Sequence record: NC_014467.1
Direction: 5' to 3' (one strand)
DNA from: Escherichia phage RB16
DNA: 64,000 bases
Shown here: in pieces, positions 4,006 through 23,842 of the stretch
Layout: the number at the start of each line of letters is the position of its first letter
Position numbering within the stretch: the first letter of the stretch is position 1
The notes under the pieces: model-generated
Told to the model about the DNA's origin: nothing
The model's database searches: none
The model's input: only the letters and a program-made list of their open reading frames with translations
Translations under genes and position numbers: made by a program

Positions 4006-4570
4006 AAACTGGGACGACGAATTTCAAGCCGAGATTCGTCGTCGGTTTTACCATGTAAACGGGGTTTTGTATCACAAGACGGAGAGTAAACAAACTGCTT
4101 TTTCTCCGGCGGGATACTATTTCAAACCTGGTGATATGGTGAAATGTCACAAAACTAGGAAAAAGACTCCATATTTACAGATTTGTATGCGATATGAAGG
4201 GAAGTCTAACTATCTATACGTACATAGGGTTGTGTGGTTTCTTGAATATGGGTATCAGGTTGATACGATCGACCATATCGATCTAAATCCTTTAAATAAT
4301 GATCCATCGAATCTTAGAGAAGCAAGCACACAGCAGAACCATTACAACAAAAATGGAAAACCTAACACTTCCTCCACTTACAAGGGTGTATCATGGGATA
4401 AATCAACTTGCAAATGGAAAGTGGGTATTCAGCATAATAAGAAAAAGATTCATTTAGGATATTTTGATGATGAAGTCGAAGCGGCTAAGGCATACGATGC
4501 AAAGGCAATTGAAATTGGTGGACAATATGCGAGGTTAAACTTCCATGATTATGTTAGAACGAGAATTTGA
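3995..4570 (+). CDS. HNH-AP2 homing endonuclease (paralog 2)
   Basis: HNH motif (IDHIDLNPLNNDPSNL) plus AP2-like domain (YKGVSWDKSTCKWKV...LGYF). Confidence 0.8.
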   Translation: MITKNWDDEFQAEIRRRFYHVNGVLYHKTESKQTAFSPAGYYFKPGDMVKCHKTRKKTPYLQICMRYEGKSNYLYVHRVVWFLEYGYQVDTIDHIDLNPLNNDPSNLREASTQQNHYNKNGKPNTSSTYKGVSWDKSTCKWKVGIQHNKKKIHLGYFDDEVEAAKAYDAKAIEIGGQYARLNFHDYVRTRI

Positions 4571-4742
4571 ATTGATGACCTCTCCAGAAGCGGAGAGGTT
4601 TTATCTTCATAACGAACTGTTGGAAGAAAAACACGTTGTCTCTATGGAAGATGTCAAAGAAGCCTTTAAAGACAATCAGTTAGAGCTAACGCGAATACTG
4701 AATAATAAATCGTCTATGTGGTTTCTCGAAAAAATCTATTGA
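4545..4742 (+). CDS. hypothetical protein (65 aa)
   Basis: ORF track only. Confidence 0.35.
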   Translation: MIMLEREFELMTSPEAERFYLHNELLEEKHVVSMEDVKEAFKDNQLELTRILNNKSSMWFLEKIY

Positions 4743-18552: not shown

Positions 18553-19122
18553 ATGCGCTTTTTAAAATACGCAAGCTGGCTTGTACTGGTTCCACTGGAT
18601 ATTCTTTCTGGTGTTCTGGCTATTCTGCTGGCTCCTTTCGTGGTTCCGTTCTATAGTGAAGAAACCGGACACTTACCTAAAGGGTTCCGTTGGATGGAAA
18701 CATTCGATAACCCGATCGATGGTGATGGTGGACATATCCGGCGTTGGGCTAACATCCGGTATCACTTAGGCGCTCTGGGTGTGTATACGCAACGTGTAGG
18801 CTGGTTGTGGCGTAACAAGGCGTACAACTTCGCTTATCACGTCTTAGGGCGTGAAGCACAATCAGACTTCGCCTGGAAGGGCAACCCGAAAACAGAAGGT
18901 GGTTCCGATCCATCACGTCACGGTTATCTGTTGATGTGGAATGATTCGGCATGGGGGCTTTATGTCTTCAAACCGTGGCTTAAAGTCGGAAAGGTTCAGT
19001 TCTGCTTACGCGTGTATTGCGGGTGGAAACTGAAACAGGAAGTAACTGACCCGAACGGGCTGGATCGTGCAATGCTGGCGTTCCATATCAACCCGTTGCG
19101 TTATTATGTCGTAGAAAGGTAA
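18553..19122 (+). CDS. membrane-anchored hypothetical protein (189 aa)
   Basis: N-terminal transmembrane helix ([25 protein letters not shown]). Confidence 0.5.
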
Positions 19123-19126
19123 TACA

Positions 19127-19489
19127 ATGAAAGCATATCAGATTTTAGAAGGTTTACACACTGGCACAATCTACATGGAAGAAGGTAATGATGTTCGTGT
19201 GGTGGTATCCAAAACCCTCGAAATGGATTCAGTGATCGGTAAAGCTCGCGTTGCTCCATTCGCAAAACGTGAAGTCGATATTGAATTTCAACCCACTGTT
19301 AAAGTGGAAGGTGGACAACACTTAAACGTAAACGTGTTGCGCCGCGAAACTCTGGAAGATGCTGTGAAGCATCCAGAAAAATACCCACAGTTAACGATCC
19401 GTGTGTCCGGCTATGCAGTGCGTTTCAATTCACTGACTCCTGAACAACAGCGCGACGTTATCGCCCGAACCTTTACAGAGAGTCTATAA
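19127..19489 (+). CDS. autonomous glycyl radical cofactor (GrcA/YfiD-like; T4 Y06I-type)
   Basis: C-terminal ~60 aa match the E. coli GrcA/PflB glycyl-radical domain as recalled ([61 protein letters not shown]). Confidence 0.85.
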
Positions 19490-19770
19490 TGGCGATTGAA
19501 GACGTACAGGGCTATAAGCCCCATTCAAAAGAAAAGATCGACAAAGTAAACCGCATCAAGGCCGCTGAAATTGCCCTGGGCGAAATCTTCAAAGAACTGG
19601 ATGAAGAGTATTCAAGCGATTACGCGGTATCAGATACCGATTCATTCACCACAGAAGAACTCGATGCGATGCTTGAACGTGTCCATCAAATCCAACTGGC
19701 GAAAGACCGACTGAAAGAAGCCTCTATGTGGGCGTGTCGTGCGGTGTTCCAGCCAGAAGAAAAGTATTAA
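19489..19770 (+). CDS. hypothetical acidic protein (93 aa)
   Basis: ORF track. Confidence 0.45.
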   Translation: MAIEDVQGYKPHSKEKIDKVNRIKAAEIALGEIFKELDEEYSSDYAVSDTDSFTTEELDAMLERVHQIQLAKDRLKEASMWACRAVFQPEEKY

Positions 19771-19820
19771 AATCCAGCCGTTGCCGAAAGGTAGCGGCTT
19801 TTTTCGTTTTTATGCAAAAT

Positions 19821-20189: not shown

Positions 20190-20279
20190 AGGTATACGGG
20201 GAAAACAGAAAGAACAATCTCCGAAGAGATTGATGTAATCAATGAATTTCTATGTAGACCATACGTTAAGAGAGTTATT

Positions 20280-20720
20280 ATGAATATTGGTAGTGGTGAT
20301 TCATACCCATCATGCGCATTGAGCAACTTCGCCCCGCATCCGTTTACGTTTGACGGGGTAGAATGTGCATCAATGGAGGGCTTTTTACAAAGTCTGAAAT
20401 TCAGCAATCCAGATATGCAAGCGCATGTGTGTACGCTGGTTGGTAAAGCCGCCAAGTTCAAAGGCAAGAAAAAGAAATGGTATCGCGATCAGACCCTATA
20501 CTGGAAGGGTATGCCGATTCACCGTGAATCAGAAGCATATCAAATTCTGATTGAAAACGCATATAATGCGTTATTCCTTAATGAAGGGTTTCGCCGTGCG
20601 CTGGCAGCAACCGGAAAAAGTACCTTGACACATTCAATGGGAAAGAATAAGATGAATGAAACGGTACTCACTGAACGTGAGTTTGTCCGAAATTTAACCC
20701 GATTGAGAGATCTGTTATGA
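20280..20720 (+). CDS. NADAR-domain (YbiA/DUF1768-like) protein
   Basis: LSNFAPHPFTFDGVECASMEGFLQSLKF resembles the NADAR core of E. coli YbiA (FSNFAAWPIKVDGKTWPTSEHYFQAQKF). Confidence 0.7.
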   Translation: MNIGSGDSYPSCALSNFAPHPFTFDGVECASMEGFLQSLKFSNPDMQAHVCTLVGKAAKFKGKKKKWYRDQTLYWKGMPIHRESEAYQILIENAYNALFLNEGFRRALAATGKSTLTHSMGKNKMNETVLTEREFVRNLTRLRDLL

Positions 20721-20995
20721 TAGGTTATAAAGATTATGATGAAAGAGTAGAATGCGCGTTCCTGTTCAAAGGCGCGATTAACCCGTTGGCATTACTCCAC
20801 GCACAGGGCGCTTTGAGTTCTACCCTGATTATGGGTGTTATCTACAAAGCGGGTGTGTATTACGTCACCATCGGCGCGAACAACATTAACGTGATCAACA
20901 GCTACGTTGAAAAATGTAAGCTGAAAGATATCGTGTTCGATAAAGTCGAAATGGATGTTCCTGGCTTCGACGCTGTTTATATGTACAAGGGTTGA
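20717..20995 (+). CDS. hypothetical protein (92 aa)
   Basis: ORF track. Confidence 0.4.
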   Translation: MIGYKDYDERVECAFLFKGAINPLALLHAQGALSSTLIMGVIYKAGVYYVTIGANNINVINSYVEKCKLKDIVFDKVEMDVPGFDAVYMYKG

Positions 20996-21219
20996 TGATG
21001 GGTTACGTGGTTTATTTCGATTGTTCGGATCTTGATCCGTTCGTTCTGCAACAGGCAAAGAAATATCATCAAGATATCACTGGTATCAGTGTCACGAACG
21101 ATGATATGCTGTGTATCGAATTTGATTATTATCGTACATTTGAGCGTGACAAATTCCTTGCGGATATTGAAGCGTTTAAGAGTACCCTTTTCTTTGATCG
21201 TTATGAGGTTAAATCTTGA
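20992..21219 (+). CDS. hypothetical protein (75 aa)
   Basis: ORF track. Confidence 0.4.
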   Translation: MMMGYVVYFDCSDLDPFVLQQAKKYHQDITGISVTNDDMLCIEFDYYRTFERDKFLADIEAFKSTLFFDRYEVKS

Positions 21220-21821
21220 AACCAGTTATTCTTACCGACATTGACGGGATCGCCGTAAAATGGCAGTCGGGGTTGCCGTTCTTTTTGTCTAAACACAACA
21301 TGCCGACCGATATCGCGCTGGATATGGTTACGGATGAAAAGTTCCGCGATATGACCGAAATCTTCGGGTGTGATCACCAACTGGCGAAAATTCTCATGGA
21401 AGAATACAACAACAGTTCGTTTATTCGCTATCTAAGCGCGTATGACGATGCGTTGATTGTGATCAACCGTCTGAAAGCAAAGTATGATTTCGTGGCTGTC
21501 ACGGCGCTGGGAACTACTCCTACGGCAAGCCTGAACCGTATTGCGAACCTGAACACGCTGTTCCCTTCTGCATTCAAAGAGGTTTGTGTTGTCGGTCACG
21601 GCGAAACGAAAGTACATCGTTACCTGGAAGCCAAAGCAAAATATGGCGATCGTTTAGTATGTTTCATTGATGACCTTGCAGTAAACTTGAATGAGTGTCA
21701 TAACGTCATCAGTCAGTTGCCGTTATTCCATATGTTGCGTGGCGAACGTAGTGAACCGAGTGTACCTCATACTAAAGTGAATAACTGGCATGAAATTGAA
21801 AAAGCAATTGAGAACTCTTGA
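21216..21821 (+). CDS. HAD-superfamily hydrolase (possible 5'-nucleotidase)
   Basis: N-terminal DxDG motif (ILTDIDGIAV) and later FIDD motif. Confidence 0.5.
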   Translation: MKPVILTDIDGIAVKWQSGLPFFLSKHNMPTDIALDMVTDEKFRDMTEIFGCDHQLAKILMEEYNNSSFIRYLSAYDDALIVINRLKAKYDFVAVTALGTTPTASLNRIANLNTLFPSAFKEVCVVGHGETKVHRYLEAKAKYGDRLVCFIDDLAVNLNECHNVISQLPLFHMLRGERSEPSVPHTKVNNWHEIEKAIENS

Positions 21822-22341
21822 TGAAGAAACGCAAGGTATAGAAAACCTACTACAATGTATTCGAGTAGAACCAGAAACCGGAAAATGTTTCTGGTTGGAA
21901 AAGAGAAGTAATAAAATTCCTGCTGGAAGTGAAGCAGGTTCTTTTCATAAATCAAGTGGATATACGCGAATAAAATTCGAAAATGCGATGTACATCCGGT
22001 CAAGGGTGATATTTTATTACGTTAATGGTTATCTTCCAGTGATGGTTGACCATGTTCACGGTGTTGAATGCGGTGATATGATTTCTAATCTAAGGGAGTC
22101 CAATCAGGTAACAAATCAACAAAACCGCACACGGAATAAAAATAATACCGTTGGGTTTAAGGGCGTGTCATTCAACAAGAAATCGCAAAAATATAGCGCC
22201 AAAATCACTTTACATGGAGTGACTAAGTGGTTAGGATTTTATGATTCTGCCGAGGAAGCAAGTGAAGCATATAAGGCCAAAGCACTCGTTTCCTTTACAC
22301 ATAATGAAAGGTACTTAAATGATCTTACAGATTCTGAATGA
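21790..22341 (+). CDS. HNH-AP2 homing endonuclease (paralog 4)
   Basis: HNH motif (VDHVHGVECGDMISNL...NQQN) + AP2-like domain (FKGVSFNKKSQKYSAKI). Confidence 0.8.
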   Translation: MKLKKQLRTLDEETQGIENLLQCIRVEPETGKCFWLEKRSNKIPAGSEAGSFHKSSGYTRIKFENAMYIRSRVIFYYVNGYLPVMVDHVHGVECGDMISNLRESNQVTNQQNRTRNKNNTVGFKGVSFNKKSQKYSAKITLHGVTKWLGFYDSAEEASEAYKAKALVSFTHNERYLNDLTDSE

Positions 22342-23842
22342 ACTTGCTTCGACTCTGAAAACATCAGAGAAAGAAGCGATCCTTAAACGTAATGCAGGTA
22401 ATGACCTGCTGAAAGAGATTTTCCGCATTACGTACACGAAACAGATTATGTTTCACATCAAGAAGTTCCCGCAGGTTGACGGGAAGCCAGGCACAACACC
22501 GCTATCGAATGCTATCGCGGATTTAATGTCTGATCTGGCAACGCGGAAGTATACAGGCAATGCAGCCCGTGATCGTCTTCTGGATATCGTTTCATCGGTA
22601 AACGAAAACGACCGCGAAGTGTTACGCCGTATCATTAATCGCGATCTGGAATGTGGTGCTGGTACAACGTTACCGAACCGAGTATGGAAGAAACTCATTC
22701 CAGAACAGCCCCAGTGCCTCGCTACGCCGTTCAGTGAGAAAGCCTTAAAACGTATTCGCTTCCCTGCTTACTCTCAGCTTAAAGCCGATGGTGCGCGTTG
22801 TATGTCCGATCTGTTAGAAGACAAGATCCGCAAAGCATCCCGCGCGGGGAATGAGTATGAAGGTTTATTGAATCTGGACAAGGGTCTGAAAAAGATTCGT
22901 GAATATCTGGGTTATGATGTTGTACTTGATGGAGAACTGATTTATGTCCCTGCTGAAAAAACTGCTGTCGTTCCTTCAAACAGCGTTCCATTTAGTCTTG
23001 CTGGGTTTATGGGCGATGACGACGATTCTGTTTCTGACCTTGTGGCAGATGTTAGGCGGGAAGCTACCGAGAACGAGACACAAGCGGAAGCGAAACGCGA
23101 AGAGGGCAACGGGATTGTAAACAAATCCCTGAAAGGTACTATCAGCGACGAAGAACAGCGCAATATCGTTTATGTTGTCTGGGATATCGTACCGTATGAA
23201 GTATACTATGGTGATGCTCCGAGTGTTCAGCCATATTGCGATCGTTTCTCTATTCTGGAAGGTGCGCTGGCTGGCTCTGGTGTAACGTCAGTTAAGCTGA
23301 TCCCTTCTATCCTGGTGCAGAACTACGCGGAAGCGAAAAAGGATTACAACAATTACCGAAATGAAGGTAAAGAGGGTTCAATCCTGAAAAACGTTGATTT
23401 CAAATGGAAAGATTCACGCGTTGCGGATCAGGTGAAGTTGAAGAACAAAACCCCGATTGAACTGCGAATCATCGACGTGTACGAACACACCAAAGAAGCT
23501 CATAAGGTCGGAGGGTTCGTGGTTGAGGACTTATCAGGAGAAGCCAGAACAAACACAGGTTCCGGTCTGACTGATACGGACTACCGATACGATGAAGACG
23601 GTATTAACCGCGTGTACATCCCGTTAGAAGAACGTGGTGAACTGGATCGCGAATACATCATGGCGAACAAAGATGACTATATCGGCGCTATCGTCGAAAT
23701 GGAAGTTGACGGACTCCAGAAGTCTAAAACGCGTAAGAAGGGCGAACCTGAGTTCAGTTTCTTCTTGCCAATCATCAAGAAGATCCGACGCGATAAGACC
23801 GAACCGGATGATATTCACGTTATCTTCGCTGATCTGTTTTAA
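22319..23842 (+). CDS. 30: ATP-dependent DNA ligase gp30
   Basis: Aligns by eye to T4 ligase N-terminus (MILQILNELA...), active-site KADGARC, LRRIINRDLECGAG; 507 aa. Confidence 0.9.
   Translation: MILQILNELASTLKTSEKEAILKRNAGNDLLKEIFRITYTKQIMFHIKKFPQVDGKPGTTPLSNAIADLMSDLATRKYTGNAARDRLLDIVSSVNENDREVLRRIINRDLECGAGTTLPNRVWKKLIPEQPQCLATPFSEKALKRIRFPAYSQLKADGARCMSDLLEDKIRKASRAGNEYEGLLNLDKGLKKIREYLGYDVVLDGELIYVPAEKTAVVPSNSVPFSLAGFMGDDDDSVSDLVADVRREATENETQAEAKREEGNGIVNKSLKGTISDEEQRNIVYVVWDIVPYEVYYGDAPSVQPYCDRFSILEGALAGSGVTSVKLIPSILVQNYAEAKKDYNNYRNEGKEGSILKNVDFKWKDSRVADQVKLKNKTPIELRIIDVYEHTKEAHKVGGFVVEDLSGEARTNTGSGLTDTDYRYDEDGINRVYIPLEERGELDREYIMANKDDYIGAIVEMEVDGLQKSKTRKKGEPEFSFFLPIIKKIRRDKTEPDDIHVIFADLF

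Follow-up and report, generated by a model that had tools for sequence, protein, structure and literature searches.

What is the function of a 146-amino acid (aa) gene that related T4-like phages carry under the label 'hypothetical protein'? The gene lies at positions 20280..20720 on the plus strand of the stretch analysed here, 64,000 nucleotides (64 kb) of Escherichia phage RB16 (NC_014467.1), which we call the window. An original prediction from the letters of this DNA had placed an open reading frame (ORF) of 146 codons exactly there, and our analysis recovered the same ORF. By sequence, the gene reads as an intact orthologue of T4 gene 30.3, renamed adfN for anti-DarT factor NADAR (PMC11825919), and as an ordinary gene for a T4-like phage. 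In all likelihood its product is an AdfN-type phage NADAR, a core-only ADP-ribosylglycohydrolase of 146 residues that counters the DarTG1 defence system. AdfN-type function and mechanism are already published for the T4 orthologue and are not new.

Family, fold and active site

The translated ORF matched the Pfam model PF08010 (Bacteriophage protein GP30.3; Phage_30_3) along positions 2-138 of its 138-position profile, scoring 189 bits where the cut-off is 36 (E 4.4e-56), and it also matched phrog_652 in PHROGs. The NADAR core of the original prediction did not surface in a simple domain scan, where both the Pfam NADAR model PF08719 (15.3 bits vs 35.1, E 0.025) and the NCBIfam model TIGR02464 (18.5 bits vs 73.7, E 0.0018) stayed below their cut-offs. 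The gp30.3 clade is covered by its own Pfam model, separate from PF08719, and some relatives of T4 gp30.3 carry precomputed matches to both PF08010 and PF08719. The core did surface in profile and structure comparisons, which used a family alignment of 111 members with <80% mutual identity. The profile of this alignment matched E. coli YbiA in hhalign (probability 93.4%, E 2.4e-7), and an AlphaFold2 model built on it (mean predicted local distance difference test score, pLDDT, 96.1) is predicted to adopt the YbiA/NADAR three-dimensional fold, with YbiA (2b3w) among the best matches by Foldseek and structure alignment. Superposition on NADAR structures covered 126-127 of the 146 residues, a core-only NADAR fold with no extensions that fits the description of phage NADAR in PMC12945103.

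BLASTP aligned the protein over its full length with T4 gp30.3 at 42% identity (E 1e-35, T4 residues 4-152 with window residues 1-146). It was ~70% identical to gp30.3 of Aeromonas phage 31 and fell within a large non-Tequatrovirus branch of the gp30.3 family, with the T4 protein on a divergent branch. Public proteins 99% identical to it already exist, and the PF08010-type family spans 1506 phage records and 4495 clusters in the protein collection. The gene and the active-site elements that we located within it, all on the plus strand, are as follows.

20280..20720, plus strand: adfN / gene 30.3 orthologue encoding the 146-aa phage NADAR protein; ORF with ATG start and TGA stop, the end including the stop
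20376..20378, plus strand: codon GAG, E33, the catalytic glutamate, equivalent to T4 AdfN E36, YbiA E48 and Phytophthora nicotianae NADAR E43 (T4 pairwise alignment and hhalign)
20397..20399, plus strand: codon AAA, K40, the phosphate-coordinating lysine, equivalent to T4 AdfN K43, YbiA K55 and P. nicotianae NADAR K50
20631..20633, plus strand: codon CAT, H118, the last-strand histidine that marks phage NADARs, aligned with T4 H123
20673..20714, plus strand: C-terminal alpha-helix, residues 132-145 of the AlphaFold2 model (block pLDDT 97), aligned with the T4 C-terminus to its last residue

E33 and H118 were invariant (111/111 family members each) and the K40 position held a lysine in 109 of the 111. 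The original prediction had stated that a lack of catalytic residues on alignment would refute it; E33 and K40, the counterparts of T4 E36 and K43, were both present, and it withstood this check. The roles given to these two residues come from work on their equivalents (PMC11825919 for the glutamate, PMC11543638 for the glutamate and the lysine); in the P. nicotianae enzyme, E43 and E125 are the residues that coordinate the distal ribose, and the pyrophosphate is coordinated by K50 (PMC11543638). At the last-strand position the YbiA family has Glu, DarG1 has Asp and phage NADARs have His (PMC11125620, PMC11543638). H118 stands opposite YbiA E125, the hhalign alignment itself stopping one residue earlier at window T117 against YbiA V124.

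The C-terminal helix region was present in 111/111 aligned family members. In T4 AdfN this helix is needed for full activity, and the frameshifted RB69 allele has lost it (PMC11825919). Since the helix is both present and confidently modelled in the window protein, the gene is not a defective allele of the RB69 type.

Predicted chemistry and competing explanations

The gp30.3 proteins were classed as phage NADARs by De Souza and Aravind (cited via PMC11543638, PMC11125620), and Schuller et al. 2023 reported that DarT1 puts ADP-ribose on the amino group of guanine, giving an adduct that NADARs hydrolyse (PMC11543638). A 2024 Toxins paper found that T4 gp30.3 hydrolyses guanosine-ADP-ribose in vitro, that thymidine-ADP-ribose is not a substrate, and that in uninfected cells the protein gave no rescue from DarT1 toxicity (PMC11125620). 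The DarTG1 resistance of T2 and T4 was then mapped to gene 30.3 by Johannesman et al. (Nat Commun 2025, 16:1598; PMC11825919). Several results of that study (PMC11825919) bear on the window gene: deletion of adfN made T4 sensitive to DarTG1; RB69 is sensitive through a frameshift that deletes the last 15 residues of AdfN and is rescued by ectopic AdfN; E36A, K43A and C-terminal truncation each reduced function; purified T4 AdfN stripped ADP-ribose off DarT1-modified DNA; a two-hybrid assay showed no association of AdfN with DarT1; and full T4 AdfN function was seen only in T-even infections. A transposon screen agrees, as insertions in adfN (30.3) were lost on DarTG1 hosts, making the gene conditionally essential (bioRxiv 10.1101/2025.11.20.689424). 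Protection against DarTG1 has been shown for T4 and T2 (PMC11825919; 10.1101/2025.11.20.689424), and hydrolysis of guanine-N2 ADP-ribose on DNA only for T4 gp30.3 (PMC11125620, PMC11825919, PMC12945103). Methods 4.2 of PMC11125620 gives the T4 gp30.3 construct as residues 1-208, whereas T4 gp30.3 has 152 aa and T4 gp61.2 (AdfA) has 208 aa; this is probably a typographical slip or a different gene model, with no bearing on the conclusion here.

We established the reading frame, family, fold, catalytic residues, intact C-terminal helix and synteny of the window gene directly, and the proposed chemistry and anti-DarTG1 phenotype are carried over from the T4 work. During infection, DarT1 of a DarTG1-bearing host would attach ADP-ribose to guanine N2 in replicating phage DNA. 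The window enzyme would bind the ADP-ribose, K40 holding the pyrophosphate and E33 and H118 flanking the distal ribose, and hydrolyse the N-glycosidic bond to give free ADP-ribose and unmodified guanine. With guanine restored, phage replication and transcription could proceed, so that the enzyme would substitute catalytically for the host DarG1 antitoxin without binding the toxin. It is likely that this 42%-identical orthologue acts in the same way in its own Enterobacteriaceae hosts, among which this phage group counts Klebsiella, Enterobacter and E. coli.

The original prediction had proposed reversal of guanine ADP-ribosylation and a counter-defence role for the phage copy; the tested T4 orthologue supports both for a protein that is full-length and syntenic and has its catalytic residues intact. 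Two of its broader statements need narrowing. Of the DarT-type systems it gave as targets, DarTG1, which modifies guanine, fits, but DarTG2, which modifies thymine, lies outside AdfN action. It had also described NADARs as antitoxins to DarT, whereas T4 AdfN is not a free-standing antitoxin in uninfected cells and counters DarTG1 during infection.

Several points weigh against assigning the window protein an AdfN role. Identity to the tested T4 enzyme is only 42%, and that enzyme itself sits on a divergent family branch; we infer the activity of the window protein and of its clade. T4 AdfN was fully active only in T-even infection and failed to neutralise DarT1 when cells were uninfected (PMC11825919, PMC11125620), a dependence on context that may not be the same for the window protein. 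The T4 NADAR also removes guanosine-ADP-ribose from RNA in vitro (PMC12945103), and DNA may therefore not be the sole substrate.

Comparison with characterised NADARs places the protein closest to T4 gp30.3/AdfN, with which it shares the Pfam family PF08010, size, core-only build, E/K/H active site, intact C-terminal helix and a genomic place with the 30.2 homologue and ligase gene 30 downstream. DarG1, the BC4488-family NADAR antitoxin of DarTG1 (for example Geobacter lovleyi NADAR, PDB 8BAT), has a catalytic last-strand Asp where the window protein has His, carries an N-terminal beta1-beta2-alpha1 extension that the window protein lacks, and is encoded in a toxin-antitoxin operon rather than by a lytic phage. 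No DarT family match was found in the ten neighbouring ORFs scanned. The window protein thus has neither the last-strand Asp, nor the N-terminal extension, nor the adjacent darT1 of a DarG1. We rejected a host-type DarG1 identity on the PADLOC result as well, which gave just a marginal match to PDC-M42C (an uncharacterised candidate model, E 0.0038) and no DarG model at E <= 1. AdfN(Bas32) and AdfN(Bas60), from T5-like and Vequintavirinae phages, are likewise phage NADARs that counter DarTG1; their authors trace them to separate acquisitions out of other NADAR branches and report that they neutralise DarT1 without infection (PMC11825919), whereas the window protein falls in the gp30.3 clade of the T4 type.

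Among the alternatives, the one we rate highest, although still unlikely, keeps the chemistry and changes the target: the physiological substrate would be other ADP-ribosylated nucleic acid, for instance guanosine-ADP-ribose in RNA or adducts left by non-DarT1 ADP-ribosyltransferase toxins (pierisin/ScARP-like, YarT-like). Every tested NADAR family, that of T4 included, clears guanosine-ADP-ribose from RNA and DNA in vitro (PMC12945103), NADARs vary in the toxin they neutralise in vivo (PMC11125620), and the window clade is just 42% identical to the T4 protein. Against this, DarTG1 accounts for the sole known in vivo phenotype of the family, and reversal of cytidine-ADP-ribose is listed for the NADAR and YbiA families but not for phage NADAR (PMC12945103). 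Action on RNA or other nucleic-acid adducts is possible as an additional role of the window enzyme. We give less weight to, and regard as quite improbable, a role in which the enzyme mainly hydrolyses soluble derivatives of ADP-ribose, for instance immune signals made from NAD or RNA-repair by-products, rather than DNA adducts. Iyer, Burroughs, Anantharaman and Aravind 2022 proposed such a role for phage NADARs before experiments were available (PMC9503650), the bare core lacks the basic N-terminal DNA-binding extension of DarG1 (PMC12945103), and a cyclic-nucleotide sponge (an Acb2/Vs.4 homologue) encoded 500 bp upstream indicates that this neighbourhood handles soluble signals. The T4 orthologue, however, works on ADP-ribosylated DNA in vitro, and genetics shows that T4 needs it against DarTG1 (PMC11825919, PMC11125620), and no soluble substrate has been demonstrated so far for the gp30.3 clade.

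A housekeeping N-glycosidase of the YbiA type, which would destroy reactive intermediates of the riboflavin pathway, is very improbable. The weak TIGR02464 match (E 0.0018) and the place of 2b3w among the top structural matches point towards it, but 18.5 bits is far under the 73.7 cut-off, the invariant H118 stands where the YbiA family has its defining glutamate, and the neighbouring genes hold no riboflavin-pathway context. Identity to E. coli YbiA (PDB 2B3W) and P. nicotianae NADAR (PDB 8BAU) is ~20-23%; with a score below the NCBIfam cut-off and without the last-strand Glu, the window protein falls outside the YbiA family (TIGR02464). Least credible of all is a homing endonuclease. This identity comes only from Escherichia phage UPEC03 (MW250785), a 98%-identical genome in which the product is named 'putative homing endonuclease'. 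Searches of Pfam, PHROGs and NCBIfam gave no nuclease family match and the fold is that of a NADAR, so the family and fold assignments refute it; the misplaced label is probably explained by a real HNH/AP2 homing endonuclease nearby, at 21790..22341.

Gene order and neighbouring genes

We read the signals at the two ends of the adfN orthologue from the sequence and compared the surrounding gene order with that of T4.

20267..20274, plus strand: purine-rich, Shine-Dalgarno-like stretch TAAGAGAG, ending 5 nucleotides before the ATG
20717..20720, plus strand: ATGA stop/start overlap of the 30.3 homologue with the next ORF (20717..20995)
20717..20995 and 20992..21219, plus strand: two small ORFs of 92 aa and 75 aa, phrog_7604 and phrog_6222, function unassigned
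21216..21821, plus strand: gp30.2 homologue, 47% identity to T4 gp30.2
21790..22341, plus strand: 183-aa ORF for an HNH/AP2-type homing endonuclease, overlapping the gp30.2 homologue and the ligase gene
22319..23842: DNA ligase gp30 homologue, 40% identity to T4

The upstream stretch resembles a Shine-Dalgarno sequence and may serve as one. The ATGA overlap suggests co-transcription and translational coupling with the downstream genes; in T4, 30.3 and 30.2 overlap likewise. We claim no promoter because a consensus scan gave 8 matches against 5.5 ± 2.4 in shuffled sequence. ORFs in other frames or on the opposite strand across 20280..20720 lacked family support, and we treated these as by-products. 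One of them, a 41-aa ORF at 20425..20550, has the offset and frame of the T4 internal ORF 30.3' and is much shorter than the 75-aa T4 ORF; we rejected it as a gene and regard it as a by-product of homology.

The 30.3 homologue is preceded by homologues of pseT, cd and 31 and followed by those of 30.2 and 30, and from this order the window gene is the positional orthologue of T4 30.3. The arrangement differs from T4 in the two small ORFs and the HNH endonuclease inserted among 30.3, 30.2 and 30. The small ORFs, whose start and stop codons overlap those of their neighbours, separate the 30.3 and 30.2 homologues that overlap directly in T4. Pfam matches of the 183-aa HNH/AP2 ORF were weak and fell below threshold (AP2 21.9 bits, HNH_3 19.2 bits), but in related phages this ORF is annotated as an HNH homing endonuclease.

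Immediately upstream, the window carries a second gene with a counter-defence relative.

18553..19122, plus strand: DUF7338 protein, labelled 'holin' in UPEC03
19127..19489, plus strand: 120-aa glycyl-radical domain protein, GrcA-like 'autonomous glycyl radical cofactor' (PF01228, E 2.5e-18)
19489..19770, plus strand: 93-aa homologue of T4 Vs.4, the Acb2 anti-CBASS cyclic-nucleotide sponge (PF24729 Acb2/Tad1 hairpin, E 2e-17; PDB 7UQ2 'Vs.4', E 2.3e-23)
19776-19799: strong terminator-like hairpin, 3' of the Vs.4 homologue

The GrcA-like and DUF7338 ORFs sit just upstream of the Acb2/Vs.4 homologue, which itself lies ~500 bp upstream of the adfN orthologue, and this places two counter-defence genes within ~1.2 kb. 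In T4, by contrast, the vs genes are in a different region from gene 30.3. Homologues of the other T4 anti-DarTG factors in the literature, AdfA (gp61.2) and AdfM (the Tk.4 macrodomain), were not detected by tblastn within the 64-kb window, and the interval between the vs and tk homologues (~49.2-50.6 kb, minus strand) held small ORFs only and no 155-aa ORF of Tk.4 size; both genes may be located outside the window.

The product of 21216..21821 matched the first 195 residues of T4 gp30.2 and had no Pfam match. Its AlphaFold2 model (pLDDT 95.8) has a HAD fold, with 3bwv, a deoxyribonucleotidase-like protein, as the best Foldseek match, and within the gp30.2 family D8, D10, D152 and D153 were invariant and K132 almost invariant; together these residues make up the motif set of HAD phosphatases (DxD...K...DD). 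From the model, gp30.2 is predicted to be a HAD-fold hydrolase whose DxD...K...DD active site is intact. The gene has stayed close to adfN, the two being adjacent in T4 and near each other in the window phage. We see a slim chance that gp30.2 is the missing phage partner behind the T-even dependence of T4 AdfN, or that the non-Tequatrovirus branch differs in its substrate range or need for a partner. As a partner, gp30.2 could for instance act on ADP-ribose once it is released, or on a phosphorylated intermediate. For either reading, the support is gene adjacency.

Annotation of adfN across related phages

Escherichia phage UPEC03 (Straboviridae, Pseudotevenvirus) shares 98% identity with the region, and many Klebsiella, Enterobacter, Cronobacter and Citrobacter phages of ~178 kb share 90-97%. 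UPEC03 carries the adfN orthologue at 4281..4721 under its homing-endonuclease label and the other phage records that we inspected list it as 'hypothetical protein'; such public annotations are either outdated or mistaken.

Database entries for the family are uneven. In Tequatrovirus, many gp30.3 entries are truncated to 86-126 aa or show Pfam domains that belong to neighbouring genes (PF11097, PF06919, PF06019). This suggests that disruption or mis-calling of adfN is frequent in T4-like phages, over and above the frameshift published for RB69. Many family representatives at the 50% identity level are longer (200-560 aa), with the NADAR core fused to other regions, and one protein of 480 aa had three matched stretches.

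The window gene opens no new question, because the mechanism and biological role of AdfN were published in 2023-2025. What it supplies is a firm functional label for a gene that is still a 'hypothetical protein' in the listed records, those of many Klebsiella, Enterobacter and E. coli phages included. The presence or absence of an intact adfN in a phage predicts whether DarTG1-bearing strains can restrict that phage, which is useful for choosing therapeutic phages.
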